This document shows, piece by piece, positions 30,588 to 49,691 of a stretch of 62,091 nucleotides of DNA. Below the pieces are notes generated by a model. It did not search any database. It was given only the letters and a program-made list of their open reading frames with translations, and was not told where the DNA came from. Numbering within the stretch: the first letter of the stretch is position 1; each line of letters begins with the position of its first letter. The position numbers and the translations under genes are program-made. The DNA is from a virus (taxonomy: Duplodnaviria; Caudoviricetes), in the IMG/VR virus record IMGVR_UViG_3300036399_000656, positions 1 through 62,091 of that record; one strand, written 5' to 3'.

Positions 30588-33500
30588 TGGAGTTTAACGA
30601 AGTCATAGCATTTACCGGCGGTATAAATACCGACGACACACCTCAGGGTGTGCCTAAGGGAGATTATAGAGATTTCTCGTATTGTCGACTTGGATACAAT
30701 TCTGGTAACGCATATGCCGTAGAGACTTCTGATGGAACTTTGATTATTCCTGAGGAAACGATAGAGATTGAGGACCAAATCATCGGCGCTACCCAGTGGT
30801 TGAAAATGAACGCAATCGTGTACTTTGTCTATAAGGCTAATCTTGTTCATGAGATTTGGTTTTACGAAATAGATTCCCTAAGCCATACTCGCGTTCTACA
30901 GTCTGCTGAGCTAAACTTCAGCAGAGACTGGCCGGTATACCACGCCAACGTGGTTGACGATATTCTCAAATGGACGGACGGTCGTTGGGATCCCCAGATG
31001 TATGATGCGGACGGTAATAGACTTTTCAATCCTCCGTACCAAATCAATTTGCAAAAGGCGCTTGACAGCTTCTACACGAGCGTAACCCTTCAGACCATTG
31101 ATGCTATTAAGTGGCCAATGGACCCTCCTCGCGTAGCCTATTTTACAGATCCCACAAGACAAGATAACAAACTCCGCAATAAGCTGTTCAAGTTTATTAT
31201 TCAGCCTATTTACGAGAACGGGGAGGCTGGAGTGTGGTCGATGTATTCTAATTTAGAGTTGCCTCAGCAGTCTGAATTGATACCTGGAACCAATTGGCTT
31301 TATCCAAACAACAGTAACGGAATCAACATACAGTTTGAGACAGGTCCCCAGATAATAAGAAAGTTTAATATCGCTGTACAGCAATATGACAAGGAAGATT
31401 TTGGAACAGAGCCTCCTTTTGGGGTATTTCTTCAGTTAGACAAGGACCAAGACGTAATACCAAACAATACTATTTGGACTGTTTCTTTTTACGGAGGGGT
31501 TGCCACGACTCCGGCTGTAGACGTATTTAAGAACTACGATCGACTACCGATAACCGCAAGCTGTCAAGAGTACCTCCCCACGAGCCAGATAGTGTACACT
31601 AACTTCAGGGAGGGGTACGACAAACCTACAGAGGAGCCTTTTATCCTTGACGTTGGGGTTGGCTATCAGTTAAACGAAATAAACTGGAACCCATTTGCGG
31701 CAATTGATCTTGATATTACATACAGCCTTGCGTCTTCATCAATAACAACAGACACTGATGATTTTAACGCAAACGATGTGTTTCCGTTTTCTGCCGGTTT
31801 GGTGCTTCAAGGTCCAGCGCCAACTAGCGCTTCAATTGGTATATTTGTTTATCAGATAACTCAAGCGGATATTGACGCAGCACTAGCGGCGGGCGCTACT
31901 CCAATGGATTGGAACATAGCGATAATGAATATCATATGTAACTCTTTCATGTCTCAATTGGGCTACACCCCTGTGTCATCGGCAGTTGCATTAGGTAATG
32001 CTGTTAGATATACTTTTACAGCGGGTCCTAATCCAGATGGGGTTTTTAATCCAAGGGTAAGATCATACAGACAAACGCTTTCCGCTCCATCTCTGAAAGT
32101 AGGAGCCACCCATGAATTTGGTATTGTGTACGGAGACAGGGCGTATAGGGACGGTACTGTTTACACGGTAGATTCCATGAATCTATTCGTTCCCTGGTTT
32201 TATGATTTGGACAGGACTGGACTTAGCAATGCCGACAATCCATTTACGGTAAATGCAAGATTTACTATAGACCACATACCCCCGGTATGGGCTGACAGGT
32301 ATTGGATAGTAGCAAAGCCGGCAACTGAAATTTCTAGTTTTGGTCAGTACACAACCAACGCAAATGACATTAGTTTGATTGGTAATGTTGGGGGAAGCGG
32401 ATACGTTTCTTCAATATATTTAGACACAGTAACCAACAACAGATACATAATAAACATAGACAAGTACTATGTAAATCAGAACATTGGAGCGTCAATAGCC
32501 CATGAGATTAAAATTGGAGACAAGATAAGATTCATAAGAAGAAGACTGGACGGACCGGCAACAACCGCCGACCAGGTTGCCTACTTGCCGTATCTTGAGT
32601 TAGATGTTGTCGGGTATGATCCGGTGGGAGGTGAACAGCAACGCCAAATAGTTTATACAAACATATTTGACACAAGCCTCATAGAGACGCAGGCTGGATT
32701 AGACTCGGTTGACGGACAGCTGTTTGGTCAACTGATAGAAATATACACACCAACACCTTCGGTGGATGATACAGGAAACTTGTTTGTATCCACTTGGAAA
32801 GATGTAAGCGAGGCCATAGACATAAGAAACCCACACACGGAAGACAGGGCGCACGGAGCGCCGCCTTTGTATTATGTGTACATAACAGGTGATGACCCTT
32901 ATTTCTTCTACATGAATGGGGATTATACATTCCTAGAAGGCAATACGTATTCTGTTACAATACACAATTTAAACGGTACCACCAACTCGGTTAGCGCAGT
33001 AGTTAATTTAGCTTCCTACCAGCAGTCTTCAAATCAGACTAGACTTGCGTTTGGATTTGCCGCCACATCTAGCATGGCTTACTTGACCATAGATACGGAT
33101 GTGTTTGCTGCTGAAACAAACGAATATCAAATATCAAACGATTTAGTTTCATCTCGACCAGCAACGTTTGCTTTAGGCTACGGGGATGTGTATGTAAAGC
33201 AGAGAAACTACCAGACAGGCATGGCCGCAGAATCGGCTCAGGCTTATTATTTTATTGAGGATCCAAACTACTCAGACTACTGGCCAAGCAACATACACGA
33301 AACCGGAAGAACAAGGATTGAGGATCCTAATGCTAAGATGACTCACCGCCAGGCAACGGCTATTCATTCTGATTCATTTATCGTAGGAACCCAGATAAAC
33401 GGTTTATCTTCTTTCTCTTTGTTGAATGATAACATCGAGGGCATGAATTCACTGTTCGGTCCTGTTGTTAGAACATATATGTCAGGACGCGAAGGTAAAA

Positions 33501-34930
33501 CTCTCAAGTGTCTTCAGCCAAGGAAGGAGAACTCTATCTACATCCAATTCTACCCCAACGAGGTAGGCTCGGATTCAACCGTTCGTGTTTCTAGTAAAAC
33601 CTTTGCATCTTGGTTTGACTACAAGACATTGTTTGGTTGTTCGGACGCGGGGGCAAACGCGATACTGCCCGACGGTACAACGATGTACTTTGACAACAAG
33701 GCCGGGGTGTTTATGTATTCCGGTGCTAACGGGCAAATAGTTGTGAGTGAGATAGACCCCGGCACGGAAAAGGATTACAAGTTCAGAACAAAGACCAAGG
33801 AACTTGCCGCTTCGTACAATTCAACAAACAGACCGGTAGTTAGAACTTACGTGAACGAAACGGTTGGGGAGGTTGGCTTTGCATTTAGATTCGGTCAGCA
33901 ATTCACCGGGCAAATGCAGGGCGGGTTTAGTCCACCAACTTTTAACGACCAAGTTTGGGTTGTTGTTGGTTCTGATGTTGAGAATTTATTCGGATTAGAG
34001 ATTGTTGTCGTGCATGAAAATGGTGCGGTTTATACAGGAACTGTAACTCAGGCCATTTGGGATGAGGAACTGAACTACACTACGATTCAGATAAACAACG
34101 CAGGGCCTTCACCGGCTGAATTCAACATCCTAGCATACTACTACACAACTAGCGGGTTCACATACGACCACGTTGTGTTTGACTACGTGAACATGCGATG
34201 GAGGTCAACGTATGACTATAACTTCCAACAGTTCTGCAACCTAGGCCAGACTCTTGTCGGATGGGGCGTGAACAATCAAATGTACCTTCACAACCAATAC
34301 GGAAGCTGGGATTTCCACGGTCAGCCATTCATTCAAAAGGTTTCTTTTGTTTCGAACGAAAACCCACTAGCCCTCAAGAGGTATCAGGACATAAGTCTTA
34401 TTTCTGATAATATATTTTCTATTGAGGCTTCATCAGATCCAAACAGAAGTTACCCGCTTGGCATGAAAACCTTAATGCCATCAAACATTATAAATACCTA
34501 TGAGGGGTACGGCAGTGTTTACTACAGAAAGAATTTGTATGACCCAAGGTTCTTTAACACGGGTACTACAATAACAAGTAATTACGATCCGCCAAACGGC
34601 TTCCCGGTTAATGGCTGGGTTGTTCCTGGGGACCAACAGGACTTGTTTACACAAAATATAACCATCATACAAAACGACGGGACTATATTTTCAGGGGATG
34701 TTTCATCAGCTACTTACAGTATTCCGGACGACAACACATTAATCGTGCTTGCTGATCAGGAGCCTAGTAGTTTTGGCATAAACGGATTTTGGTACAACAG
34801 CGATAGAGCGATGTTAAACGGTGAAGACATGAGGGCAAATGCCTTGACTCACAACCTTTACTTTGACCCGTCACTGGCGGATCAGTCGTCTATTCTTTTC
34901 TCTGTTGCAATTAAGGGTGTTTTATCTTAA
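30587..34930 (+). CDS. Tail muzzle/stabilisation protein (P22 gp10-like)
   Basis: FTGGINTDD....P.GDYR; LKWTDG; NFREGYD; FGIVY.D; 1447 aa beta-rich. Confidence 0.8.
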   Translation: MEFNEVIAFTGGINTDDTPQGVPKGDYRDFSYCRLGYNSGNAYAVETSDGTLIIPEETIEIEDQIIGATQWLKMNAIVYFVYKANLVHEIWFYEIDSLSHTRVLQSAELNFSRDWPVYHANVVDDILKWTDGRWDPQMYDADGNRLFNPPYQINLQKALDSFYTSVTLQTIDAIKWPMDPPRVAYFTDPTRQDNKLRNKLFKFIIQPIYENGEAGVWSMYSNLELPQQSELIPGTNWLYPNNSNGINIQFETGPQIIRKFNIAVQQYDKEDFGTEPPFGVFLQLDKDQDVIPNNTIWTVSFYGGVATTPAVDVFKNYDRLPITASCQEYLPTSQIVYTNFREGYDKPTEEPFILDVGVGYQLNEINWNPFAAIDLDITYSLASSSITTDTDDFNANDVFPFSAGLVLQGPAPTSASIGIFVYQITQADIDAALAAGATPMDWNIAIMNIICNSFMSQLGYTPVSSAVALGNAVRYTFTAGPNPDGVFNPRVRSYRQTLSAPSLKVGATHEFGIVYGDRAYRDGTVYTVDSMNLFVPWFYDLDRTGLSNADNPFTVNARFTIDHIPPVWADRYWIVAKPATEISSFGQYTTNANDISLIGNVGGSGYVSSIYLDTVTNNRYIINIDKYYVNQNIGASIAHEIKIGDKIRFIRRRLDGPATTADQVAYLPYLELDVVGYDPVGGEQQRQIVYTNIFDTSLIETQAGLDSVDGQLFGQLIEIYTPTPSVDDTGNLFVSTWKDVSEAIDIRNPHTEDRAHGAPPLYYVYITGDDPYFFYMNGDYTFLEGNTYSVTIHNLNGTTNSVSAVVNLASYQQSSNQTRLAFGFAATSSMAYLTIDTDVFAAETNEYQISNDLVSSRPATFALGYGDVYVKQRNYQTGMAAESAQAYYFIEDPNYSDYWPSNIHETGRTRIEDPNAKMTHRQATAIHSDSFIVGTQINGLSSFSLLNDNIEGMNSLFGPVVRTYMSGREGKTLKCLQPRKENSIYIQFYPNEVGSDSTVRVSSKTFASWFDYKTLFGCSDAGANAILPDGTTMYFDNKAGVFMYSGANGQIVVSEIDPGTEKDYKFRTKTKELAASYNSTNRPVVRTYVNETVGEVGFAFRFGQQFTGQMQGGFSPPTFNDQVWVVVGSDVENLFGLEIVVVHENGAVYTGTVTQAIWDEELNYTTIQINNAGPSPAEFNILAYYYTTSGFTYDHVVFDYVNMRWRSTYDYNFQQFCNLGQTLVGWGVNNQMYLHNQYGSWDFHGQPFIQKVSFVSNENPLALKRYQDISLISDNIFSIEASSDPNRSYPLGMKTLMPSNIINTYEGYGSVYYRKNLYDPRFFNTGTTITSNYDPPNGFPVNGWVVPGDQQDLFTQNITIIQNDGTIFSGDVSSATYSIPDDNTLIVLADQEPSSFGINGFWYNSDRAMLNGEDMRANALTHNLYFDPSLADQSSILFSVAIKGVLS

Positions 34931-35836: not shown

Positions 35837-37066
35837 ATGGCAGAGATAGCAAGTCAAGGCAGGGTAGGAGAGCAGGGCGGCGGAGAAGCTGTCGTATTCG
35901 ACACGTCTCAGTTTTTCCAGAACGTATACAATATGCAAAAGGATTTGTATGCGCGTCAGGAAAAGAAGAAGCGGGAGATAGACCAACAGAATGCCACCTG
36001 GAATGCGTTTCTTGAGGATATGCCCGATGTATGGGAATCTGACTACGAGTACGTAAACAAGGCCCTCAACGAATACAACGATTACATAATCGACCTGAAG
36101 ACTCAGGGCTTAGACCCGGACGCTTTAGATCCTACGATTATGAAAAAAATCAAGCAACTTCAAAATAACGTTGCTAAGGAAACATCAAGGGCCAAAAACA
36201 ACGAGGACTATTCTGTAAAAGCAACTCAGACTTTTAATGGCGACAAGACCAACGCGTACAATAAAGACCACGCCACTCAATGGTTTAAGGATTATACTGA
36301 CCCCAACAAAACCCCGGAGCAAAGGGCCAAGATGAGGGCGGAATCAAGTCCATTCAAGTATAACTACACGATGGATGAATTCATAGACGAAACCATTCCT
36401 GACGAGGTGTACACTGATACGGGTCGTCAAAAAACTATATACAGGGACAAGGATTCGCACAAGGCGATAATATTCGACAATATAACCAACACCGACATAG
36501 GCAAGGACATATACGAAACCTTAAAGATAGACAACGAAACTCCCGAACAGTTTACTGAACGCGTGGCTGAACTTGGTCAGAAAAAATACGGTGTTAAAAC
36601 GGATGTTCAACCCCCACCATCGAGAGGCGGCAGCAGGGACAGCAGGGACAGCAGGGACAGCAGGGAGAAAAAAGAAGACAAGGTTGAGATTGTTGCTACA
36701 GAAAAGGTTGCGGATCCAAAGTGGACTCAAGAATACGATGTAAATGCGGTATCCCTTGGTAAGTTAAAGCCGCCTGTTTATGTTTACACGGATGATGGAG
36801 TCCCTGTAATGAATTTCGTTCCTGACGATGGTTTTTATTTGAGACCAGGAAACACGATAGTTGCTGTTGGATACGGAACCGATGAAGAGGATAAGCAGAT
36901 TAGGGTGGAGATTGACTATGAGAAAAACAAGAGGAAGTTTAATGCTGCCGGATACCCAGATATGTACGACTACTTTGTACAAAAGATTTGGGGAAACAAA
37001 TCAGGAGGGGCATCAACAAAAGAAACACCAGCTCAGAGAGCTGCACGAATAGCTAACGGAGGATAA
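35837..37066 (+). CDS. Ejection/cargo protein (409 aa)
   Basis: Position; GEAVVFDT N-terminus; coiled coil. Confidence 0.65.
   Translation: MAEIASQGRVGEQGGGEAVVFDTSQFFQNVYNMQKDLYARQEKKKREIDQQNATWNAFLEDMPDVWESDYEYVNKALNEYNDYIIDLKTQGLDPDALDPTIMKKIKQLQNNVAKETSRAKNNEDYSVKATQTFNGDKTNAYNKDHATQWFKDYTDPNKTPEQRAKMRAESSPFKYNYTMDEFIDETIPDEVYTDTGRQKTIYRDKDSHKAIIFDNITNTDIGKDIYETLKIDNETPEQFTERVAELGQKKYGVKTDVQPPPSRGGSRDSRDSRDSREKKEDKVEIVATEKVADPKWTQEYDVNAVSLGKLKPPVYVYTDDGVPVMNFVPDDGFYLRPGNTIVAVGYGTDEEDKQIRVEIDYEKNKRKFNAAGYPDMYDYFVQKIWGNKSGGASTKETPAQRAARIANGG
36631..36666 (+). repeat. In-frame 9-bp tandem repeat x4
   Basis: CAGCAGGGA x4 encoding SRDSRDSRDSRE. Confidence 0.85.
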
Positions 37067-37067
37067 C

Positions 37068-40000
37068 ATGGCAGATACCCTTACACCAGAAGAAAAGAAG
37101 AGGTTAACTGAAGAGCTAACTAAGTATGCAAACGAAGGCGCAAGCGATGATGATTTGCGTCAATTCCGTAATGCATTTATTTCTGAATTAAAAAAAAAAG
37201 GGGGTGGGCAACCCGCTTCTGGTGCGCCTGCCGCGAAGCCTACAAAGCCTTCTGCGCCGAGCTTTGGGCAGAAAGTGGTAAGTGAGGTAACGCAACCTCA
37301 AATAAAAATACCCCTAAGAGGTAAACAAAAACCTCCGGTAGCCAAAAAGCCATATCAAGATATTTATTATAAACCAGAAGGATTACCGTCTGAAACAACA
37401 CAGATACCGGAAACTCCCGTAATCAAAGCTGCTAAACAAGATTTCAAACAAACTCAATTAAAGCCTCAGATTCAACCAGTCAAAACCGCTCAAGAGCTTG
37501 AAGAAATTGAGAAAAAAACTGAAAAGGCAGATAAAACAGGGTTAGTTCTTAATGAGTATCAAAGCAGTGCCGATGCATTAAACGAATTAAATCGCCTCAA
37601 GAAAGATAATGCAAATGAGTTCTATCGCAATATAAAGGACGCGAGGCCAGATTTGTATGAGAAGTATTCTGGCAGGACTATTCAAGAGGGTAGAAATATT
37701 GAGAGTGATATAAGCGAGTCTCAAAAAGATAGAGATATAGTTTATCAGAATTATTTATCAGACCTACAACGCACAGACGAATCTCATAGAAACACTCTGA
37801 GCAAAGTGGGTCCTATAGTTAATTCTGTTGTAGATAAAAAAGTGACCCCTGAAAACTACAAGAGACTTACCACTAGTCATACAACGGATATTGGTGGCGA
37901 TGTTGTAGATATGGGTAAAGTTGATGACGAGGCTACCGCAATTGCTGAAAAGTATAATTTACCTACAGATGGAGAGGCGTGGAGATTGTTAAAGAATAAA
38001 ATCAAGTCAAACACTGACTTTCAAATAATAAAGCCACAAGCAGAAGAGTTATTTAAACAGAATTATCCAGAGCTACACGCCAAAAGGCAGAAAATGTTTG
38101 AGGATGGGTTTAAGTACGATGATGAGATTTATTCAAAGGTTGAATCTGAATTGACTTCTTTGCAGAATCAATACGAGGCTGATGCTAAAAACGAATTAAA
38201 CGCCATTGATGCTGAATACAAATCAAAGAGTGAATTATTAAATCAGCAGTATAAAGATTTTACTTCTCAATCCGAAAAAGTTGGAGCCGAGTTAGATAAT
38301 CTGTATAAATCAGGACAAATCGATCGATTAGAGTACGAGAATCGTTGGGGCTTATTGCAAAAAGAGAAAAAAGATTACTACGATCTTTATGAAAAACAAT
38401 TTCCAAGTCTTGATGAATATGTAAAGAAGTCAAATGAAATAAACTCAAAGTACAATAGAAAATTTGAGTTGCAAAAAAAGGCTTTAACAGATAAAGCTCA
38501 AGCGCAAATTAAGGCTGAATTTGATAAGTACTCCACCAATTACAAAGAGGATCCAGCTGTATTAGAAGAGCTAAACAAAGCGTATAGAGACTCGTATGAA
38601 CTGGCATCAGACATCAGAACAAAGACAATGGGTCTTGGCGCTGAAATGTCAAGCGCACCAATGTCTAAACTTTACCAATCAACATTAAGTTCTTTGGGTG
38701 GCGTATTTAAAGGATGGGGTGGTTCATTGGATAGCAAAACACTTGAATTGCTTGGTGAATCAATGGAACAAAATTTCATGATGCCAGCGGCGAGAACTGA
38801 AGAATTTAAAGACTGGTTAGACCCTCAAAACTTACAACTACTTACCGGTCAGCTTTTGGGTTCCATGGCCCCATCAATGGCCATAACCGCCGCTGTCGCC
38901 ACAAGCACAGGTGGAACGGGTATTCCCGCAATCGTTCCAATGATTACTGGGGGCCTTGCTGGATGGGCATCTGAAACGGTTGATATCGTCGGTCGTTCTT
39001 ACTTAGACATGTTTGAAAAGAGTGGGGGAGATGTTGCAAAGTCAAACAAAGCTGCTGAAAGGTCTCTAAAGTCTCAATACGACTTGATGTGGGCCTACTC
39101 TTTCGATGCACTTCCATTCGTGGGCAAGGTCTTGGGGGGTATACCCACAAAGGTGGGTAGAGTGGCTGCTGGTGCTGGTATAGAGATGGGTACAGAATTC
39201 TTGCAGGAATACCCACAGAATATTGCTGAAGAAAACATTCAGAAAGGACTTGACCCCTGGACGAACTTGGGCCAGGCTCTTCGGGATACTAAGAAGATGA
39301 AGGAAACGCTCATCTCAATAGGCCCTGTAGCAATCCTTGGTGGCGCTGGGCAACTTGGTTCTAAGTCAGCAAAACAGGAGGCGGTTGATACCTATGTCGC
39401 TATGCAACAAAAGGCTGCCTTGTCTATGGCATTACCTGATCAGAAGCGTCAGTACATACAAAACATGGTGTTCGACCGTGGCGGTAAGTTTGCTAGAGGT
39501 GTTGTGGGGGCAATGTTTGCTGATGGAACCATTGATGAGGAGACGTCAAAGGACTTGCTTGTGCAAGTGGAGAATTCCGAGAAAATACAAGAGGCAGGAA
39601 AAGGTGCAGGACTCAAGGGTTCTAAACTCAACATCTATGGTTTTTATAGCGCAAGGGCTGAAGAAGCTGAAAGAAATGCAGCTAAATTTGGTAACGACCC
39701 AATCCTTTCCGAGTCATACAAGCAGCAAGCAAAGCAATATCGTGACGCCGGTCTTGACTTCATGAAGGGAAATAATCCCGACCTTCTTACAGTTACTTAC
39801 GCTGATGGCTCTCAAGCTATGATGACCCCGGAGGACGTAAACGGGTTATTCTCCAATCCAATTGCTCTTACCTTATTAAATAGAAAAAAGATTTCAGTTG
39901 AAGCATACAGAGAAGGTGGACAGGGCGGCAAAGCTCTTCAAGAATTAACTGAAAGAGCTGATGCATACAAGCAGAGTAAAAAATATGTTGCCCCAAATAA

Positions 40001-43000
40001 AACAGAGGATGAGGTAAATGCTTCCTTCGAAGCTCAGTCAGTACAAGAAAAGGAACAGAAAAAAGATACGCGAGACATTGAGATTGAACAAATCCAACAA
40101 CAACGAGAGGCCCTTGGGGTTAGCGAGGTTGATGCGTTCTTTAGCGATATGAAGCCATTAGTTGCCACAATGGTGGAAAGAATGGAGGCAGGGCAGGCAG
40201 CGCCGCAATCGGGTGTGAAAGCCGCGTCTGATTATTTGTACGCTAAGTACAAGGAATTAACTGCGATGAAAGCAGATCCTAACCGGATGATGACCATTGC
40301 TCAAATCGAGTCTATACAAGCTCAGATAGAACAGGATTTACAAACCTTGGCGGGGAATCCTCCGTCACAACAAACTCAAACGAATGATCAAGAAAACATC
40401 CAAGGGCTACCAAGTGAAGTCGGAGTCGGGCAAGAACCTATCGCAGCCCAACCTGTCCAAGTCACAAGCGAAGAAGCGCCTGCAACAGGTGGAGTTCTTC
40501 AAACACCGGGGGAAAAAGTAGTAGAGGTAAAGCTCGCTGAGTTACCTACAGTAACAGTAGAAGGTCAAGCGGTAGAAGTAACCCCAACCACAGAAGCCGC
40601 CGCAGAACAGGTTGGTACTCAACCTTCCATTGGTATAAATCAAAAGGCTGAAAGCGTAGAAACGTCTTCTATCCAAGAGAGGGCCAAAGCCACTAATGCA
40701 AAAATTAAACGTAAGGATATTTTTGATGGGGTAGGTGTTTTCTCCGAGAAGTTAGGTGGAAGCGATGTTGAGTCAGTACCCGTTGGGCATTCTGAAATAG
40801 GAAATGCGGAAATAGTTCAATACGCAAATCCTAAAACGGGAATTATTGATGTAATCGTTGCAGGGATTACAGAGAATGATTTTGTTGGTTTTTATAGAAT
40901 ATATGAAAATGGCAAACCCACAAATAGATGGAGTTCTAAATTCGAGACTCAAACTGCTAGTAAGGAAGATTTTAAAAGCATGATCTCAGGAGTGCAAAAC
41001 GCACTTCCCCAGGGACATGAATATACCGAAACCACAAGCATATCTACGGATGGTTTGAGGGTGTGGAATCAGCAGTTAAACAGAGGATATGAGCTTCAAT
41101 ACGATGAAAAAGGAAAGTTGGTAACAACTCCGGTATATATAAATGGCGATTCCAAAACAAATATTTTAGGCATACCTGTAAACAAAGGAGCGTTTGATGC
41201 AATTAGTGTAACCAATGCGGACACATTTAATAAGGTAAAAGAGGTGCTTCTTCCATTCCTTGAGAAGTTTGGATTGAATGAAACAAATATTAGGGCGGTA
41301 AATGGATCTGTTGAAATAGATTTACCCGTATTAAGACAAAAGGCAACTCCCCAAGTTACCCCCCAAGTTACACCCGAATCTGCCCCTGTTACAAAACCAT
41401 CCCTTGGTCAACGTCTACGGATAGCTGCTGAGGCCGCAGAGACAACGGTAACGGTTCAAGAGCCTTCTCCTGTAAAAGAGGAAAAGAAGGAAGGTGTTGC
41501 ACCTGCTCCAAAGACCGAAGAAAAGCCAACCCGCAAGACTCGACTGGCCAAGTTGTTTGAAACGTCTGAAGGTGAAGAGGCTGTTCCATTAATTGAGCAA
41601 TCTCTTTCTGAAAGCGGCATAAAGGTAGACGTAAAAGATGATGCCGATTACAATAATGACGATCGTATAAAGCGTAGTCAAGGCCGTGGTTCAGAAGGTA
41701 TGTTCGTGGCTGATGATGGAACGATTATCTTAAACCGAGACAAGATCAAGGGCGAGTGGGGTAAAACTATCGTATTCCACGAAGGTATTCACCCAGTGGT
41801 AAACATCATCCGCAACACTGATCCAAAACGATACAGAGCAATCGTAGACGGACTTAAGTCGGAGGCAGCAAGAAATAATGCAGTGGCTAAGGCTGCCGCC
41901 GACATTGCTGCCTCTGAAGAGTATCAAAGAAGAGGTCCTGAGAGTATTGAAGATGAAACGGTTGTTGAGACTATGGCTCGTGTAGCAACTGGAGACATTG
42001 ACATCAACACGTTCAAACCTTCGTTCCGCGAGAAGTTCATCGAATTCATGAACGATATAGCTAAGGTATTTGGATTGAGACCTATCCTTACAAATTCTCC
42101 ACGAGTTGAGGTGAAGCGTTTGGCTGAGCAGATCAACAAAATGTTGAATGAGGGCGGTAAGATTAGCGATGTTGTAGGGAAGAAGAATGTAGGTAAGTTC
42201 CAGAACACTATTAGTGACGGACAATATTCTATAGATGCTAGAATAGCAGACAAAGGAGTTCAAGTTCCTCGAAGCGAAAAATTGCCATTGAAAATTGTGG
42301 CAAGCAAAGAGGAAAGTGTTATGCGTAGGATAAATGAATTGTTAGACAAATATCCAAACGCATTAACTGATAAAGAGCAATGGAAAGAGTTGATGTCAAG
42401 AGTTTTCCCTATAACTGTTGATGGGGAAGTGTTTATACCAGCATTTCCAGAAGGACTCTCTAGAATGGCTGGAAGTGTGCAAGAGACTTTAAAAGAGATA
42501 AATAAAGTCAGCGATGAACAAAGAAAACTCGCTTCAGAAGGTTTGAAAGGAACCAAGGAAATTGGCGAGTTGTACAAGCAAGGAAAAATGGACGAGGTTG
42601 ATACCGGTCTTTATTTCTTGTGGAACATCATGTCAATAGGTATAAGTCCATATCCTCAAGAGTCTGGATTTCTTCAGGCTGTTAATGGCGGTGTAGACAA
42701 GTATATAAAACTTGCAGCTGCGGGTAAATTTAATGAAAGCACTCTTAAAGAATACTTGAATTGGGTAGACGGAGTGCTTCCTAAAGGAACTCCTGGAGCT
42801 GGATCAAAGTCTAACTTAAATTCATTTGGTAAAAGTTTCTTATCAAAGGCGGCACAAGAAATTGAAAGTGGAGAATTTGAAGGGAAAACAAAACTGCAAG
42901 CTCTTCATGAAATTCTTTCTGATAGAAAAACACCAACCAACGAACTTAGAAGAAAATGGCAAGCAAACATGTCTGCCATGCAATTCAATAATAAGATTTT

Positions 43001-45020
43001 TGACTTTATCTTGCTTACTACTGGTCGTAGTGATTTGTTTGTTACAGACAGAGTTAGGGTAGATCACTTCTGGGACGGAAATAACTTTAAGAAGAAGCGT
43101 GGTTTAAAGGAGTCAACCTCTTTGTATGATGGAAGCGACTTGGCGTATGGTGCAGCAACAGGTGCTGGATTTAGTAAGATACTATCAGATGTGCCTGGAT
43201 TAGTGTTTAATGAATTGGCGAACAGAACTATGACGCCCATAGTTGAAAAGGCTTACAAACAGATAGGAGTAAAAGATTATCCTGAGGTAGGCAGATTTCA
43301 CTGGGAAACATGGGTAGCTGCTAGTTCTCAGGAAGTTTCTCACGGATCTATTGATGCTATTGTACAAAGAAAAGAGAAAGGAGAGATACAAGACGCCGGC
43401 ATTCGTCAAGGTAAATATGGCGCATGGGATTTTAATTTTGCGTACAAGAAAAGAGCGGGGAAAGATTTCGTTTATGAATTTGTAGACAATGACGGCAACA
43501 CTTATGTGTTTGATAAGATTAATGATATTCAAGACGAGATAGAGAAACAAAAGAAAAAAACATACGAAACAAATAATAGATTTTTATTACCAGATGCAAA
43601 AGGAAACATATCAAGGCCAACAAAAGGCTTATCGACCGCTTGGTACGACACAGAACTCGTCGATGCAGAAAAATATTTCGAATTCCTCAGAAGCAAAGCA
43701 AAGGAAATCATTCCAGCACCTGATGTCGTTGAAGATCAAGGCGTCGTAATTGAAAAGCCGAAATCTGAAAAGATTTCTAAGGAAAAGAAACCAACTGGCC
43801 AACCATCCCAAGGCATCCCAAGAACACCTAAAGAATTCGCAGGTAATGTAGGAGAGACGATCGACCGTATCAAGGCCGCAACATCGGAGGACGGAGCAAC
43901 GCTCAACCTCGATGGTACAACCTACGAAGACGGAGGTCTTGTGGTTCCTGCCGGTTCATTGAACGTGGCCCAGGACGAGGTTACTGCCGAGGGCTTGTTT
44001 GAGTTCTTAAAGGATAACGAGGAGAACATTTCTAGCGACATATTCAAGATCGGACTTTACAAGTTTCCAGACCGTCCAGAGGTTTCTTACGACTTGAACA
44101 TCGTGATTCCAAGGGAGTACCGTGATGTGGCCTTGAAGTTTGGTGAATTGTCTGGACAGGAATCACTGTTCGACCTTGATACGTTTGAGAACATCAAGAC
44201 CGGATCAGACGGTAAGAATCCACGCAAATTCACGGCCCAAGAGCTTGCTGAGATTGCCAAGGATTTGTCTGAGGGTAGACTTCCAAAGATTGTTTCAAAA
44301 GAAGAGATTGATAGAAAGTGGGGAGAGAAAAAAATGATCGCTTTAACTAAGCGAGAGGATCTTGGAACAAAGACTGACAGAGAGATTGCTGCCTATGCTT
44401 CTAAATTCCTGAATAAATTCGGACCATATACCAAGGCCAATGTTGTTCAGATTATGAATATGTCTGCTGAAGAGAAAATCAAACTCATCAATGACACATT
44501 TGAGGCTAGGGTCAAAAAAATGAATCCAGCCTTTAGAGAGCCTGGAAATGATTTTTATGATCAATCAGTTAAGCGTAGGGATGAGGTATTAGCTCTGGTT
44601 ACAAAGCCAACCGGCCAGCCATCAATGATGAAGCGTACTCCAGCCCAAATCAGACAGGCTGTAGAAGATGGGGTAGACGCAGTTGAAGCAGCGATTGCTG
44701 AGGGCGTGGATCCACAGCAGGCCGTTGACGAGAACATCTCAAACCAGGAATGGTACGGTGATTTGAGTGCTGCCCAGAAAGAACAGCTCAATGAAATCCT
44801 TCAAGACGAGTTCGGGGCTACGGCGAGTGAACCTAAACTACAGAACAACGCCCAGCGTGTAGCTGATCTTTGGGAAAAGGGTGGAAAAGAAGCCAAGGCA
44901 GAGATCAAGAACATTTTGGAGACTGACCCTGAACTTTCGTACATTTACAACAATTTCCCGAAGATAACTAAGCAGTTACAGGAACAGGGATTGTTGACTA
45001 AAACAGAGAATTGTCCATGA
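37068..45020 (+). CDS. Giant polyvalent ejection protein (2650 aa)
   Basis: Gly/Ala membrane-insertion segments, GNAT-like module, HEGIH zincin motif, HhH-glycosylase-like module, module shared with early gene 746-1222. Confidence 0.8.
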   Translation: MADTLTPEEKKRLTEELTKYANEGASDDDLRQFRNAFISELKKKGGGQPASGAPAAKPTKPSAPSFGQKVVSEVTQPQIKIPLRGKQKPPVAKKPYQDIYYKPEGLPSETTQIPETPVIKAAKQDFKQTQLKPQIQPVKTAQELEEIEKKTEKADKTGLVLNEYQSSADALNELNRLKKDNANEFYRNIKDARPDLYEKYSGRTIQEGRNIESDISESQKDRDIVYQNYLSDLQRTDESHRNTLSKVGPIVNSVVDKKVTPENYKRLTTSHTTDIGGDVVDMGKVDDEATAIAEKYNLPTDGEAWRLLKNKIKSNTDFQIIKPQAEELFKQNYPELHAKRQKMFEDGFKYDDEIYSKVESELTSLQNQYEADAKNELNAIDAEYKSKSELLNQQYKDFTSQSEKVGAELDNLYKSGQIDRLEYENRWGLLQKEKKDYYDLYEKQFPSLDEYVKKSNEINSKYNRKFELQKKALTDKAQAQIKAEFDKYSTNYKEDPAVLEELNKAYRDSYELASDIRTKTMGLGAEMSSAPMSKLYQSTLSSLGGVFKGWGGSLDSKTLELLGESMEQNFMMPAARTEEFKDWLDPQNLQLLTGQLLGSMAPSMAITAAVATSTGGTGIPAIVPMITGGLAGWASETVDIVGRSYLDMFEKSGGDVAKSNKAAERSLKSQYDLMWAYSFDALPFVGKVLGGIPTKVGRVAAGAGIEMGTEFLQEYPQNIAEENIQKGLDPWTNLGQALRDTKKMKETLISIGPVAILGGAGQLGSKSAKQEAVDTYVAMQQKAALSMALPDQKRQYIQNMVFDRGGKFARGVVGAMFADGTIDEETSKDLLVQVENSEKIQEAGKGAGLKGSKLNIYGFYSARAEEAERNAAKFGNDPILSESYKQQAKQYRDAGLDFMKGNNPDLLTVTYADGSQAMMTPEDVNGLFSNPIALTLLNRKKISVEAYREGGQGGKALQELTERADAYKQSKKYVAPNKTEDEVNASFEAQSVQEKEQKKDTRDIEIEQIQQQREALGVSEVDAFFSDMKPLVATMVERMEAGQAAPQSGVKAASDYLYAKYKELTAMKADPNRMMTIAQIESIQAQIEQDLQTLAGNPPSQQTQTNDQENIQGLPSEVGVGQEPIAAQPVQVTSEEAPATGGVLQTPGEKVVEVKLAELPTVTVEGQAVEVTPTTEAAAEQVGTQPSIGINQKAESVETSSIQERAKATNAKIKRKDIFDGVGVFSEKLGGSDVESVPVGHSEIGNAEIVQYANPKTGIIDVIVAGITENDFVGFYRIYENGKPTNRWSSKFETQTASKEDFKSMISGVQNALPQGHEYTETTSISTDGLRVWNQQLNRGYELQYDEKGKLVTTPVYINGDSKTNILGIPVNKGAFDAISVTNADTFNKVKEVLLPFLEKFGLNETNIRAVNGSVEIDLPVLRQKATPQVTPQVTPESAPVTKPSLGQRLRIAAEAAETTVTVQEPSPVKEEKKEGVAPAPKTEEKPTRKTRLAKLFETSEGEEAVPLIEQSLSESGIKVDVKDDADYNNDDRIKRSQGRGSEGMFVADDGTIILNRDKIKGEWGKTIVFHEGIHPVVNIIRNTDPKRYRAIVDGLKSEAARNNAVAKAAADIAASEEYQRRGPESIEDETVVETMARVATGDIDINTFKPSFREKFIEFMNDIAKVFGLRPILTNSPRVEVKRLAEQINKMLNEGGKISDVVGKKNVGKFQNTISDGQYSIDARIADKGVQVPRSEKLPLKIVASKEESVMRRINELLDKYPNALTDKEQWKELMSRVFPITVDGEVFIPAFPEGLSRMAGSVQETLKEINKVSDEQRKLASEGLKGTKEIGELYKQGKMDEVDTGLYFLWNIMSIGISPYPQESGFLQAVNGGVDKYIKLAAAGKFNESTLKEYLNWVDGVLPKGTPGAGSKSNLNSFGKSFLSKAAQEIESGEFEGKTKLQALHEILSDRKTPTNELRRKWQANMSAMQFNNKIFDFILLTTGRSDLFVTDRVRVDHFWDGNNFKKKRGLKESTSLYDGSDLAYGAATGAGFSKILSDVPGLVFNELANRTMTPIVEKAYKQIGVKDYPEVGRFHWETWVAASSQEVSHGSIDAIVQRKEKGEIQDAGIRQGKYGAWDFNFAYKKRAGKDFVYEFVDNDGNTYVFDKINDIQDEIEKQKKKTYETNNRFLLPDAKGNISRPTKGLSTAWYDTELVDAEKYFEFLRSKAKEIIPAPDVVEDQGVVIEKPKSEKISKEKKPTGQPSQGIPRTPKEFAGNVGETIDRIKAATSEDGATLNLDGTTYEDGGLVVPAGSLNVAQDEVTAEGLFEFLKDNEENISSDIFKIGLYKFPDRPEVSYDLNIVIPREYRDVALKFGELSGQESLFDLDTFENIKTGSDGKNPRKFTAQELAEIAKDLSEGRLPKIVSKEEIDRKWGEKKMIALTKREDLGTKTDREIAAYASKFLNKFGPYTKANVVQIMNMSAEEKIKLINDTFEARVKKMNPAFREPGNDFYDQSVKRRDEVLALVTKPTGQPSMMKRTPAQIRQAVEDGVDAVEAAIAEGVDPQQAVDENISNQEWYGDLSAAQKEQLNEILQDEFGATASEPKLQNNAQRVADLWEKGGKEAKAEIKNILETDPELSYIYNNFPKITKQLQEQGLLTKTENCP
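40384..40521 (+). CDS. Nested small basic protein (45 aa) in +1 frame of the giant
   Basis: MIKKTSKGYQVKSESGKNLSQPNLSKSQAKKRLQQVEFFKHRGKK; leader ACAACAAACTCAAACGA-ATG. Confidence 0.7.
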   Translation: MIKKTSKGYQVKSESGKNLSQPNLSKSQAKKRLQQVEFFKHRGKK

Positions 45021-45523
45021 TGACACCTAATAAACTCGATAAGAAAGCCGTTGACCTACTCATCCCGCGAATGAAGGATGAGTACAACGCATTTTACTTT
45101 TACCGTGCCGCCAGCAACTGGTGTCAGGGGGTTGGCTTTTTCCAAGCGGCCAAGTTCTTTGCTGCCGAGTCGCAGGATGAGCTTGAACACGCAAAGAAGA
45201 TTGAGGACTACATCACCGACTGGAATGTGATTCCGGAACTGCCAACGGTGGCTCGCCCACAACTAGATTTCTCTAGTATTGTGGAGGTTTTGGAAGAGGC
45301 TTATAAGATCGAGTACGATTTGTACGAGGCTTACGAGGAGACGTCGAAGAAACTTTTCGAGATCGACCTGTGCGTGTTTGACTTTCTCCAACCACTGCGG
45401 TTGATACAGAACAAGTCTGTTGCTGAGTACAGCGACAAACTTAACCTGCTCGAAGGGGTAGAGGGTACTGATAAATTCAAAGCACTGTTGTTGGAAGAAA
45501 AGTTATTCCCCGTAAATGGCTAA
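45017..45523 (+). CDS. Non-heme ferritin-like protein (FtnA-like)
   Basis: E..A...Y...., AAKFF..ES.DELEHAKK, EEAYKIE, FDFL....IQ; ATG 45017 overlaps the stop of the giant. Confidence 0.88.
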   Translation: MMTPNKLDKKAVDLLIPRMKDEYNAFYFYRAASNWCQGVGFFQAAKFFAAESQDELEHAKKIEDYITDWNVIPELPTVARPQLDFSSIVEVLEEAYKIEYDLYEAYEETSKKLFEIDLCVFDFLQPLRLIQNKSVAEYSDKLNLLEGVEGTDKFKALLLEEKLFPVNG

Positions 45524-48500
45524 TCCCTGTAAAATAACCTTTAAGAAAACCAAGGACGGAAAGGCAAAGGAGTATACCTATGCCGAGTTCATGACCGCCT
45601 TGCAAGACGGCTTGTTTCAAGAGCTTGTAGACTCTGGGGTTTTGAATGCAAACAAAATTTCAGGAAGCCCATTTGAGACCAAGACTCCTGAGGCTCCTAA
45701 GACCACCAAGAAGCAGACTAAAGAAAAGAAGAGTACGATGTCTGACTTTATGAAGTCAAGACTAGGCGAGGCTTATGGGGACCTAAAACAGCGTAAATAT
45801 GGGGAAAGACTTGCCGAGCAAAGAGGTATTGAAACCGAGGAATATATTTCGGTTGACCAAAAGGCTATGCAGGTTCTAGCTGAAGAAAAGTTTCAGCAAT
45901 TAAGAGAAATGTACGAATCTGGTGAGGATAAAACATTTGATGAGCTTTTAGAAGCCTATGGCAACACGACTCAAAAAGAATGGGACTCTAACCCAGGGCT
46001 ATTGTATCAGTATCAAGTTATGATGGCTAAGGCCGCTAATTATTTCTATGTAAAGGGAGATAAGAAGATGGCCAAGAAGATATACGATACCAAAGGCACA
46101 TCGGGAACTACGTTTGGTCAAGGCGTTGCCGCATTATCAGCTCAATCAACCCCGGAGCAGTTGGCCAATAGAATAATGGAAGAGGACGAATCAAGAGAAA
46201 ACTTCTTGAATCAGATCACTTCAGGACGAATAACAGTCGGAGAGGCGATTACACAATTGCGTGAAATAGCTAAGGTAACTCAAGGTGAAGTGGAGGCGAT
46301 TATTGCTAACGCAATACCTAAGGTTAAGAAGACAGCCACCGTGGTTACGGTTAAGCCGGAGTTCAAGACTCAAAGAACGGCTAGTGTAGCTGCGATCAAG
46401 GATATTTTATCGAAGAAGAGAGCGCCAGGACCACTCGCGTTATCAAACTCGGTTATTGCTGAAATTACACCTCACGTTATAGACATTGCAAGATCATACA
46501 TCCAGGAGGGTGCGTACTCTGCAAAGATGATTAAAAGCAAGGTGTGGAGTCATATTAAAAATGCTCTTCCAGGAGAACGTGCTGCGATTGACCAAATCGT
46601 AGACGACAACATGGCCGCCTTTGATTCTGAGATTAAGAAGAACAAGGAGGCTAGTGTTATCAAGCGTTTGGCAAAAGCATTTGAGGGTGTCATAGACGAA
46701 ACGGGGGTAAAGAAAAGGGCGTTAAAAATTCTTTCCGATACGATTCTGTCGAATGATCCTGGCTACATCATGGCCAAGAGCCGTGGTGAAAAGGTAAAGG
46801 CGAAAGATAGATTGAAGGCTATTCTAAACAATAAGCCACAAATAGAGACCCTAGTTCTTCAAGCAGCTAATATTGCCAAGGCTAATGTGGATGCTAACGA
46901 AAGTGCAGATGCGGCAACTAAGATGGCCATCAAGAACGAAATTGATGCTCTGGTTTCTGATCTTCTTGAAATGCCAATAGGCAATGTAGAGAGAAGGGCG
47001 GCTGCCTCATCAATGACTAAAGAAGAGCTTAATGCAGAGATTGCTCGAATTGCGACAGAACACTTCACAAATCAAAATGCGGAAATACAAACGCTTGCCG
47101 AGACTCTAGTGAACAACCTTGGTGTTGATCCTGCATACGCCACTCAACTACAGGCGGAAATCGAGCCTATGATTGAGGGTCGGGTTAACGACAAGATGAA
47201 GGCGAACAAGGATAAGATTGACACTATCATGCAGGGAATTAAGGATTCTGAAAGCGTGAAGAAGGGTGTCATCAAAGCTATTGCTAAGGGACAGGTTTCA
47301 GACACCCAGTTTGAAGACGCTCTTTTAAAGACGTTAGGTTACAAGGGTATATCTCAAGCTGACATTACAACGTTGAAGAATTACTTTGACAGACTTCAGC
47401 AGTTGCAGCCGGGTGAGGAATTGTATCAGGAAATCAATAGATACATCAATGACATTCTTAGCGAGTACGACGAAACAACGGCGGCACTTATTGGTCGTTG
47501 GTTTACTGAGCAGTTCTATATAAATGCTCTTTCCGACGTATTCAAGACAGCGGTTATGGCCTCAGGTGTCGGCGCCATAGTATCAAGCATTCAGCACGGT
47601 GCGTTTACATTCCTGTACAATCCTGCCAGGATGATGAGAGCCATTAAATTTGCTAAAAAGATGAGTTCCGAGGGAGCGACAATGGGATGGGACACCGTGG
47701 TAGCGAAATGGCAAAAGCCTGAGTCAAGATTTGGTGAAACCACACTCCTTGAAAGGCCAGAAGAAAAGGCTCACGGAGCGGTTGTTCGTGTTACTAAAAA
47801 AGAATACGCTCAAATCCTTGACGATATTATAAAGGCTAAGGGTGGAAGAAAGGGATACTACGCGGCACAGGCCGCATTGAAAACAGCGAGTCACATGATG
47901 GGCGCGGGCAAAAGAAAGCGCAAGTATATGCCAGCGTTTTCTGAGATAAGTATGGTAATGATGGGCGCTCAGGATATAATCATGGGGGGAACCTTGCAGG
48001 ACATCTACACTTATGTTGAGGCGGAGAATTATCTTGACTTGATAAATAAAGAGTCAGGTATTAAAATGAAGAAGGGGTCTGCTGCTTGGAATCAGCAATT
48101 AAAAGAGCTTTTACAGGTTGGCCCTGAACAGATAAATAACCTCAAAAAAGAGGTTGCTAAAGAGGCTGCCGACAGAATAGCCATGGGTGAGTCACTGCCT
48201 AAGGGTTGGTCTAATAGAAGACTTCGTGACAAAATTCACAATACCATGCCTAAGCAGGTGGTTGATGAAATGGCTCACCAGGCTAAAAAGTCACTGTTCC
48301 TTCAGAAACCTGAAACTGCGATTGGCGCACCAATATTTAATTTCCTTACAAGTAAGATGACCATAAAGGATTCTGATAGCGCGGCTGTAGCTAGTTTGCG
48401 TATTATAGGAAACCTGGTTATGGGCTTTGCTCGACTTAGTATTGTGTCAACTGAATATGCTTACAAGGCCCTTCCGATTGTGCCTGCCGTTACTGGTATT

Positions 48501-49691
48501 GCCTATGGTAAAAAGATTCGATACATCGACGGCAAACCAACGGTAGAGGACATGACTAACGAGGAAAAGATTACACGCATATTGAAAAATGTTGCGGTAA
48601 CAGCTGCCTGGGCTGGTCTTGTCGCTTCTATGTTTGATTATGACGATGAGGATGATGAGATCACTTTAAATCCCAATGCATGGATTAAGTTTTACGGATC
48701 AGCTGATGACGGTAAACAGAAGGCGGAAATGGAGGCGGAGGGTGCAGAACCTAATAGCGTGACTATATTTGGTCTAAACTTTTCTCTTACCCTTCTTGGT
48801 TTTGGTGCTGGTTCAATTGGGAAAATACTTGGTGAGGTCTCAAACGACGTGCGGTTTGGAAAGGAAGACAAAACTACTTTGAGTATCAATAAGGTTGTTG
48901 GACTTATTGCATCGCAGCTTACAGGAAGTGAAATGTCGGCCCCTAAAAGAGCTATAGAAAAGGTATATCAAGGATACGGGGAGGGTAAGTATTTAGAGGC
49001 TGGAGAAATACTGCTTTTAGATGGTGTTGAGACAGCTTTGTCTCCAACTATACTTGAAAATTTTAGAAAAGATTACCAGGCATGGAAGGGTGTTCAAAAA
49101 GAAAAAAGAAAGGGTGTCGTAGATAATATTGTTTCAGACATCTTTTTTACTGACATTTTCATGGATACTAATGGAGGTAAATTATATGATCATTTTGGTC
49201 AGCCTGTTTATGTCCAGCCATCTAATCCCGTTCTCAAGGCCCTTCTTCCAGAAAACGTATGGAAGGACGGAACTAACCACGTTGAAAATAGCCCGTACTA
49301 TAATCTTACCAAAGAGAAATGGTTTCCGAAACCTTACACCCGGTGGAATGCGAAGGACTGGACTGAAATAAAGGTTGGTTCCGAAAAAGAGGTTTTCGAA
49401 ATGGATGATGATTTCAAGCAGTCTTTGAGCTTGGTTATAGACAAAAAAACTGCTGAGTTAATTGATAAAAACAAGTCGAAGATAGAAAGAGAATCAGAAG
49501 AAAAGAAGGTTGAACGCCTAGATGATTACAGACAAGAGGCAATCGAAGATATCCGCGAGGAATTCAATAAGGAAATGCGAAAATTGGTTTTAAAATCTAT
49601 GAGCGAAAAGGAAATGCGCCAAGCGGTTTACAACAAAAGAGAAGAAATTGTGACGCAATTACGAAAAAAATACGGAATCGAAACCAAGTAG
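45516..49691 (+). CDS. Large helical ejection protein (1391 aa)
   Basis: Position after the giant; helical; G.T.GQ.V.AL and YINALS motifs. Confidence 0.75.
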   Translation: MANPCKITFKKTKDGKAKEYTYAEFMTALQDGLFQELVDSGVLNANKISGSPFETKTPEAPKTTKKQTKEKKSTMSDFMKSRLGEAYGDLKQRKYGERLAEQRGIETEEYISVDQKAMQVLAEEKFQQLREMYESGEDKTFDELLEAYGNTTQKEWDSNPGLLYQYQVMMAKAANYFYVKGDKKMAKKIYDTKGTSGTTFGQGVAALSAQSTPEQLANRIMEEDESRENFLNQITSGRITVGEAITQLREIAKVTQGEVEAIIANAIPKVKKTATVVTVKPEFKTQRTASVAAIKDILSKKRAPGPLALSNSVIAEITPHVIDIARSYIQEGAYSAKMIKSKVWSHIKNALPGERAAIDQIVDDNMAAFDSEIKKNKEASVIKRLAKAFEGVIDETGVKKRALKILSDTILSNDPGYIMAKSRGEKVKAKDRLKAILNNKPQIETLVLQAANIAKANVDANESADAATKMAIKNEIDALVSDLLEMPIGNVERRAAASSMTKEELNAEIARIATEHFTNQNAEIQTLAETLVNNLGVDPAYATQLQAEIEPMIEGRVNDKMKANKDKIDTIMQGIKDSESVKKGVIKAIAKGQVSDTQFEDALLKTLGYKGISQADITTLKNYFDRLQQLQPGEELYQEINRYINDILSEYDETTAALIGRWFTEQFYINALSDVFKTAVMASGVGAIVSSIQHGAFTFLYNPARMMRAIKFAKKMSSEGATMGWDTVVAKWQKPESRFGETTLLERPEEKAHGAVVRVTKKEYAQILDDIIKAKGGRKGYYAAQAALKTASHMMGAGKRKRKYMPAFSEISMVMMGAQDIIMGGTLQDIYTYVEAENYLDLINKESGIKMKKGSAAWNQQLKELLQVGPEQINNLKKEVAKEAADRIAMGESLPKGWSNRRLRDKIHNTMPKQVVDEMAHQAKKSLFLQKPETAIGAPIFNFLTSKMTIKDSDSAAVASLRIIGNLVMGFARLSIVSTEYAYKALPIVPAVTGIAYGKKIRYIDGKPTVEDMTNEEKITRILKNVAVTAAWAGLVASMFDYDDEDDEITLNPNAWIKFYGSADDGKQKAEMEAEGAEPNSVTIFGLNFSLTLLGFGAGSIGKILGEVSNDVRFGKEDKTTLSINKVVGLIASQLTGSEMSAPKRAIEKVYQGYGEGKYLEAGEILLLDGVETALSPTILENFRKDYQAWKGVQKEKRKGVVDNIVSDIFFTDIFMDTNGGKLYDHFGQPVYVQPSNPVLKALLPENVWKDGTNHVENSPYYNLTKEKWFPKPYTRWNAKDWTEIKVGSEKEVFEMDDDFKQSLSLVIDKKTAELIDKNKSKIERESEEKKVERLDDYRQEAIEDIREEFNKEMRKLVLKSMSEKEMRQAVYNKREEIVTQLRKKYGIETK

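Follow-up and report, generated by a model that had tools for sequence, protein, structure and literature searches.

The viral record IMGVR_UViG_3300036399_000656 (62,091 bp, ~95% complete), which we have analyzed over its whole length and refer to here as the window, contains a short open reading frame (ORF) of 138 nt at positions 40384-40521 that lies entirely within a much longer ORF of the same strand (37068-45020, 2650 aa, the "giant"). From comparison with related sequences, the short ORF is very probably a real and functional protein gene that is embedded out of frame in a giant virion-module gene. Since (40384-37068) mod 3 = 1, it occupies the +1 frame of the giant, where an earlier note on this DNA, made from the sequence alone, had described a complete small basic gene; such a gene is present, with its stop at TAG 40519-40521 and two further stops of the same frame at TAG 40522-40524 and TAA 40528-40530. 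Its predicted product, MIKKTSKGYQVKSESGKNLSQPNLSKSQAKKRLQQVEFFKHRGKK, is very basic (isoelectric point, pI, 10.7; 13 Lys or Arg and 2 Asp or Glu residues). The peptide that the giant's frame reads from the same bases (residues 1106-1152, NDQENIQGLPSEVGVGQEPIAAQPVQVTSEEAPATGGVLQTPGEKV) is acidic, as the same note had remarked, with a pI of 4.1, and is part of a low-complexity stretch of ~110 residues (residues ~1085-1195). The window genome holds only 1 copy of the small gene. The features on which the argument turns are as follows.

40384-40521, + strand: nested small gene, 138 nt, 45 aa and then TAG, assigned by family membership and purifying selection in its own frame
40384-40386, + strand: ATG start of the nested gene, which in the giant's frame is AAT-GAT (Asn1106-Asp1107)
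40327-40329, + strand: TAG that closes the small frame upstream, 19 codons 5' of the ATG at 40384
40519-40530, + strand: stop region of the small frame, TAG TAG AGG TAA
40383-40523, + strand: giant codons 1106-1152, which share the bases of the nested gene; acidic and rich in G/P/Q/E/V/T
40364-40383, + strand: leader of the nested gene within the giant's coding sequence; 50% A, no Shine-Dalgarno (SD) pairing (dG, the pairing free energy, +1.0), weakly folded
37068-45020, + strand: giant ORF, 2650 aa, in the late/structural block, without a Pfam or PHROG match, mosaic

The nested ORF is a typical member of a widespread and strongly conserved family of basic proteins of ~44 aa. A homology search with the 45-aa peptide, which was among the checks that the earlier note had proposed, was limited to relatives of 24-79 aa and placed 194 of 195 candidates at E <= 0.01, with family E-values down to 3.7e-19; among the 120 relatives listed, lengths are 42-63 aa and identities to the window's protein 70-98%. 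An alignment of 32 sequences has 12 invariant columns (I2, G8, V11, S13, G16, K17, N18, S20, L24, A29, R32 and F39), all of which are found in the window's copy, and this copy also agrees with the family in its start and length. The pattern of the family can be written as M-I-x-K-x(3)-G-[YF]-x-V-x-S-x(2)-G-K-N-L ... A-x-K-R-L-x-Q-V-E-x-F-K. When 1.84 billion cluster representatives (50% identity) were searched with the family profile, 1429 clusters matched at E<=1e-3 and 286 at E<=1e-10, and the matches in the ESM Atlas were unnamed clusters of 43-47 aa only. The sole clear match in deposited phage genomes is a free-standing, unannotated 43-aa ORF of Aeromonas phage 1233 (55% identity, E 2e-7). 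A weak and possibly distant match (E about 2) is also seen in Klebsiella phage YX3973 and its relatives, at the N-terminal end of a 467-aa protein encoded just 5' of the decoration and coat genes. Among the PHROGs, the only match is to phrog_26216, a family whose function is not known (E 0.026 and 15.9 bits, with residues 4-42 aligned to positions 2-41 of the 56 in the profile). Neither the 45-aa protein nor the giant matched a Pfam family at E<=1, and a search at the DNA level with 1.4 kb around the ORF found no match in deposited phage genomes.

The arrangement recurs in many other phages. Of 598 pattern matches in IMG/VR, 457 were confirmed; the 80 best loci and the window make up the 81 compared here. 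The small gene is nested in 47 of them, always in the same relative frame and inside open frames of 385-3141 codons, of which the shortest are truncated at the edge of a contig; in 43 of the 47 the giant continues for at least 100 codons to either side. Loss of the start and stop in homologous giants had been named in the earlier note as a possible refutation, and both are conserved in 47/47 loci, with 42 ATG and 5 GTG starts (the ATG of locus L026 being one codon upstream) and with 25 TAG, 22 TAA and 0 TGA stops. An upstream stop ends the small frame 0-4 codons before the start in the majority of nested loci, and adjoins the ATG in L019 and L044. The other 34 viral loci carry the gene in a free-standing state, and this, together with the ORF of Aeromonas phage 1233 and most of the 78 bacterial loci parsed (see below), agrees with the statement in the earlier note that the pattern occurs as a free-standing small phage gene. 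Free copies end in TGA in 19 of 34 cases; TGA would make no stop in the giant's frame, and its absence from nested copies may only reflect lineage or G+C content. None of the 81 loci has a further copy of the module, whatever the frame, within +/-6 kb. In a protein tree of 70 copies there are 11 changes between the nested and free states, as compared to 23 in shuffles. Positions 39600-41400 of the window are present in 24 listed sequencing runs, which come from 23 studies; 22 of the runs are labelled as lake-water metagenome and 2 as plain metagenome, so that the phage appears to be widespread in lakes.

Within these loci, purifying selection acts on the small frame when the gene is nested. 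The statistics are from 39 nested and 31 free distinct copies, after removal of nucleotide duplicates and of L080, which has no clear start. Averaged over pairs, nested copies differ by 0.24/0.18/0.46 at small-frame codon positions 1/2/3 and free copies by 0.30/0.24/0.60, and the ratio of the proportions of nonsynonymous and synonymous differences (pN/pS) is 0.29 in both sets alike, whereas the giant's frame has a pN/pS of 1.91 in nested copies, as compared to 1.59 for the same, unused frame of free copies. As selection might in principle predate nesting, 13 nested pairs with homologous giant flanks were chosen, and here 138.4 synonymous stand against 86.6 nonsynonymous differences (pS 0.41, pN 0.07, ratio 0.17); the frame-specific comparison suggested in the earlier note thus singles out the small frame as the constrained one. 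Between the window and its closest relative, L009, there are 6 synonymous changes and 1 nonsynonymous change in the small frame, and identity over the 150 residues of the giant to each side is 66% and 20%. The ORF is 0.87/0.91/0.78 identical to that of L010 in three 45-nt bins versus 0.3-0.6 in the flanks. Contigs of other lake phages, from four other lake-water DNA runs, match the window only from 40383/40384 onward, with no insertions or deletions reported on the stretch; of their 7 variant positions in the ORF, 5 are third positions that read as synonymous, and the remaining 2 jointly change Ser15 to Lys, a change that is present elsewhere in the family.

The giant's frame, for its part, is under compositional rather than sequence-specific selection, kept open and hydrophilic as would be expected of a flexible linker, because it stays open and is depleted of T while its pN/pS is like that of a non-coding frame. 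It has no stop in 39/39 nested copies, and in 29 of the 31 free copies that frame is interrupted by at least 1 stop. T is found at 43 of 1818 small-frame third positions (2.4%) in nested copies, as compared to 29.6% for 71,523 giant codons outside the overlap and 16.6% in free copies. This depletion exceeds what the avoidance of stops can explain, since 131 of the 241 third-position T's of free copies would make no stop in the giant's frame (110 would), and it also clears T-initial codons (Phe, Leu, Ser, Tyr, Cys and Trp) from the giant's linker. Both frames are therefore maintained by selection, as is asked of an embedded gene pair, the small one through its pN/pS and the giant through its openness and T depletion.

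Start signals were also compared. The earlier note had likened the leader of the nested gene (ACAACAAACTCAAACGA at 40367-40383) to the A-rich starts of real genes of this phage, e.g., AAACGATATG at 25142. The 22 larger genes of the window are mostly without SD pairing and have A-rich leaders, and the nested start is like them (A 0.50, dG +1.0). When 39 distinct nested contexts were each compared with other positions of their own giants, the leader was A-rich at p<0.05 in 18, and in 6 of the 39 (L031, L043, L050, L059, L068 and L071) a strong SD is present within the coding sequence of the giant. Folding of the 60 nt around the start is weaker than elsewhere in the giant, with p<0.1 in 26 of the 39 contexts and p>0.75 in none; for the window, the minimum free energy of folding of this region is -4.0 versus a mean of -9.2 (p 0.077). 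The Lys-rich beginning of the ORF contributes to the weak folding around the start.

The small gene is the only constant part of the mosaic giants. Among the 741 pairs of the 39 nested loci, compared over 400 residues on each side, 670 have no similarity, 35 are similar upstream only, 20 downstream only and 16 on both sides, and the flanks fall into 22 clusters upstream and 21 downstream, while the small proteins of the nested loci have a mean identity of 74%. Where only one side is homologous, the homology stops no more than 15 residues short of the nested gene in 10 of 35 pairs (upstream) and 8 of 20 (downstream). The genes that flank the giant in the window are the following.

35837-37066, + strand: upstream neighbour gene, 409 aa, syntenic in related nested loci
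45011-45523, + strand: downstream neighbour gene, 170 aa, phrog_16594, syntenic directly after the giant in related nested loci

Homologues of these neighbours occur at 25 of the 47 nested loci versus 0 of the 34 free ones, with the 170-aa gene directly 3' of the giant, so that within a related group of phages the giant fills a syntenic slot. When the window is compared with L012/L013, the 170-aa gene is 99% identical, and the giants are 86% identical in the middle of their C-terminal parts and unrelated in their N-terminal halves; this points to a recent exchange of modules within the giant.

Outside the giants, the module is found in several other states. Of 9 genes directly downstream of free-standing phage copies, 7 encode terminase large subunits (among 18 flanking proteins scanned), and one gene further away there are 1 more terminase and 1 portal. 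The small gene adjoins the terminase large subunit gene on its 5' side in the free-standing viral loci L022, L030, L042, L066, L077, L081 and L082. A scan of bacterial genomes, one per species, confirmed 529 of 600 stretches, and of the best 80 that were kept 78 could be parsed; 72 of these are free-standing, mostly with GGAGG at the right distance, and many are in chromosomes of Acidobacteriota. In chromosomes of Acidobacteriota and other bacteria, stand-alone 44-aa genes with a strong SD lie at ~6001-6132 of L090, L096, L108, L115, L124, L130, L141, L162 and others, and these copies (MIKKVKGGYKVLSEKGKNLGGPYKSK...) are very alike between species and have ordinary metabolic genes as neighbours. 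Of 35 neighbour proteins in 11 bacterial loci, none has a phage-specific Pfam domain; one is a serine recombinase, and the others include ketoacyl synthase, ETF, radical SAM and glycosyltransferase proteins. Since these stand-alone and near-alike copies sit among metabolic rather than phage genes, a cellular role is suggested for them. By the same test, the gene is nested in 6 of the 78 parsed bacterial loci. Three of these have frames of >1000 codons (L087, a Pelotomaculum metagenome-assembled genome, with an SD; L091, a Prolixibacteraceae chromosome, with an A-rich leader and perhaps part of a prophage; and L094), and the frames of L097, L143 and L158, of 334-601 codons and in more G+C-rich records, may be open by chance.

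The module also occurs in frame within longer proteins, 419 of which (112-2000 aa) match at E<=1e-3. In 134 domain rows from the 120 proteins listed and P0001, it is N-terminal in 38, C-terminal in 36 and internal in 60, the last including giants of 1000-1868 aa; a few of the C-terminal ones contain an internal Met and are probably free genes whose start was mis-called. The precomputed Pfam accessions of the fusion partners include PF05136, PF18823 (InPase), PF09979 (DUF2213), PF01343, PF04233, PF02661 and PF01068, of which we take PF05136 to be portal, PF01343 S49 peptidase, PF04233 Mu F, PF02661 Fic and PF01068 ligase. The same fold is present in BFVD proteins that bear the names prohead protease and XkdF.

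As we picture it, the two products would be made from one late mRNA. Ribosomes on the giant would read the shared bases as an acidic, disordered linker between modules, and other ribosomes would initiate internally at the ATG at 40384, behind a leader that is predicted to be unstructured, A-rich and SD-free, i.e., the type of start that seems to be used throughout this phage; in relatives from hosts that use the SD, GGAGG would take the place of the A-rich leader. The internally started ribosomes would make the 45-aa basic protein and end at TAG 40519. The earlier note had raised the possibility that the nested frame is the older one and the giant the overprinted one, and this polarity is supported, although the order of events is itself our inference: the small frame would be the older because its family is far wider than the nested clade and because selection on the two frames is asymmetric (0.29 versus 1.9). 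The linker of the giant would then have been overprinted when the giant ORF came to run through the small gene. As in-frame fusions to other giants exist, nesting may have come about by gene fusion around a free gene or by some other path.

A broader interpretation, which we offer tentatively and think rather less likely to be right than wrong, is that the stretch serves as a joint of a modular system, being at once a flexible linker of the giant, a site of homologous crossover and the gene for a small protein that acts in trans. Selection on the small protein would keep ~135 nt nearly identical in otherwise unrelated giant virion genes, and co-infecting phages could swap whole effector modules through this shared stretch, with the small basic protein acting as, e.g., a packaging or DNA-tethering adaptor inside the capsid.

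The mosaicism could also be taken to mean that the nested ORF is no longer translated and that the stretch is conserved as a DNA-level joint for module swapping, or at the RNA level, with the intact ORF as a by-product. The 670 of 741 nested pairs that lack flank similarity in spite of the 74% mean identity of the small proteins, the one-sided homologies that reach to within 15 aa of the nested gene (10/35 upstream, 8/20 downstream) and the contigs of co-occurring phages that diverge from the window exactly at 40383/40384 are all what such a joint would leave behind. It does not predict variation that is concentrated at the third positions of one frame (0.46 versus 0.18-0.24) or a pN/pS of 0.17-0.29, nor ATG or GTG starts and stops in 47/47 loci with start signals that fit the host, and we regard it as improbable; a function as a joint may exist alongside coding, not in its place. 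Less probable still is a programmed +1 ribosomal frameshift, or transcriptional slippage, that would give a truncated giant ending in the basic module. Such a product would be in keeping with the C-terminal position of the module in 36 of the 134 domain rows of longer proteins and with the run of A just before the ATG in L004. Against it stands the stop of the small frame that lies 0-4 codons before the start in most nested loci, next to the ATG itself in L019 and L044; no slippery motif is common to the nested leaders, and a first codon that is always ATG or GTG would be needless for a frameshift product. That the ORF arose by chance, or is an in-frame domain displaced by assembly errors, has its shortness and nothing further in its favour, and is scarcely credible when the same arrangement is found in 47 loci from different samples, when contigs of four other runs have no insertions or deletions on the stretch and when family E-values reach 3.7e-19. 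Recoding of TAG was considered and rejected, since the standard code gives uninterrupted frames for the giant and for every structural gene and the small frame closes with TAG TAG ... TAA.

Several observations weigh against the reading as a functional gene embedded in a virion-module gene. The A-richness of the window's own leader is not significant (p 0.135), so that the likeness to real gene starts drawn in the earlier note, while clear across the nested set, is weak for the window alone, and the p-values across loci are non-independent, the phages being related. The 43-column tree of the 70 copies is poorly supported (1 of 64 branches starred) and cannot show that the free-standing state is ancestral or how often nesting arose. 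All 24 of the listed runs that hold the stretch are DNA runs, with no RNA run among them. The window's giant has no Pfam domain and hence no polyvalent-protein domain match. Neither the fold nor the sequence of the small protein has a match in Pfam, PDB or VIA-align that points to a function, and copies in Acidobacteriota and other bacteria lie among ordinary cellular genes; a purely virion-related function therefore cannot be the whole story.

With regard to structure, AlphaFold2, run with the family alignment, predicts the 45-aa protein with a mean per-residue confidence score (pLDDT) of 91.3 as a beta-hairpin (residues 2-5 and 8-12) followed by a helix (residues 26-42). PDB gave 0 matches at E<=10 by sequence profile and nothing at E<=0.001 with Foldseek, and the best Z score among 48,161 chains compared with VIA-align was 4.8, within the noise range, so that the protein is assigned to no fold. 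A short beta-hairpin and then a helix is also seen in 6q2z (Z 4.3), 3bid (Z 3.8) and 2k7i (Z 3.1), all within the noise range of the aligner, which are presumably small proteins of the UPF0339/DUF1508 type. The same order is found in DUF2188 (PF09954), which 3 of 20 family members match over the same positions (E 0.008-0.035; 14.7-16.7 bits, below the 22-bit gathering threshold). Membership of the window's protein in DUF2188 was rejected, as it has no match at E<=1. We know of no function for either the DUF2188 or the UPF0339/DUF1508-type families, and DUF2188 is itself uncharacterized (bioRxiv 10.1101/2022.04.27.489752). It is conceivable, though we would sooner bet against it than for it, that the protein is a small capsid-interior, nucleic-acid-binding or packaging-associated protein that acts with the internal proteins of the virion; the proposal is made because the module is fused to portal C-termini, to prohead-protease/MuF N-termini and to giants, and because free copies adjoin terminase genes.

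The closest known architecture is that of Rz1 within Rz, from which the present one differs in age polarity, in the nature of the host gene and in its recurrence over mosaic giants. Rz1 within Rz of phage lambda and 18.7 within 18.5 of T7 are embedded spanin genes, and in the case of Rz/Rz1 both products are needed. Here, as there, a late phage gene contains in its +1 frame a second, complete small gene that has a start and a stop of its own. Outer-membrane spanins of the Rz1 type have a lipoprotein signal with a lipobox cysteine; the 45-aa sequence of the window has no cysteine and no hydrophobic signal, and an Rz1-type outer-membrane spanin was rejected for want of both lipobox cysteine and signal. 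The embedded protein is thus no spanin, and its gene is widely distributed and would be the older of the two; the host gene is a 2650-aa mosaic virion-module protein that is overlapped only in a linker, and the pair is not evidently a two-subunit complex. The abstract of PMC5295617 describes the function of spanins and not their embedding. Overprinting in small viruses offers another likeness, i.e., two frames on one stretch, one selected for its sequence and the other compositionally biased and disordered. The E gene within D of phiX174 is an overprinted gene of such a small virus. Overprinted genes of this kind are treated in a review (PMC8227390). In contrast to the usual picture, the novel frame here would be the long gene and the nested ORF the ancestral one, and the 62-kb genome of a tailed phage is not limited in size.

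Polyvalent proteins, as characterized by Iyer et al. 2017 (PMC5512222), are virion-packaged, injected multi-domain proteins encoded among late genes. The nested giants resemble them as giant multi-domain proteins among late virion genes, and 5 of 18 other nested giants scanned have domains of polyvalent type (ddrB-ParB, RadC, ART-PolyVal, InPase and Kinase-PolyVal); the small module is moreover fused in frame to InPase-bearing proteins. The window's giant likewise belongs to a set of late/virion genes, in which those for the terminase (17597-20059), the portal (20123-22519) and a virion structural protein (54570-55820) surround it on its own strand, and differs from polyvalent proteins in its lack of a Pfam match. 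The passages of Iyer et al. 2017 consulted describe no out-of-frame embedded gene, and the word "overlapping" occurs 0 times in the text of that paper; in full-text searches for embedded or overprinted phage genes we did not find the arrangement described, with the limit that the 40 "LPD" domain alignments of Iyer et al. 2017 were outside the search and might include the module.

Genes that are nested in longer ORFs go unreported by gene callers, and a conserved gene has therefore escaped notice in an entire group of abundant lake phages, and probably in other phages too. The usual picture of overprinting may be reversed here, with the long gene as the newcomer on the shared bases and the short gene as the ancestor, and dozens of independent sequences make this a clean natural system for the study of frame sharing when only one frame needs a specific sequence. 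A very common and uncharacterized 44-aa module comes into view that is free in bacteria, lies beside terminases and is fused to portals, proteases and polyvalent proteins. A way is also suggested in which giant mosaic virion proteins may exchange modules, and should the stretch indeed act as a joint, one piece of DNA would serve three purposes.

Some minor features of the region can be added. A 142-aa ORF with a TTG start (39337-39765) lies in the same +1 frame of the giant, and its Cys/Trp/Arg-rich translation resembles that of an unused frame. One HExxH motif is present in the giant (FHEGIH, residue 1571; 41778-41792). The processing of polyvalent proteins is said to be carried out by zincin-like peptidases, but no profile supports such a peptidase here. 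Three more very large ORFs without a PHROG match are found in the structural block, at 30587-34930 (1447 aa), 45516-49691 (1391 aa) and 50842-54228 (1128 aa).

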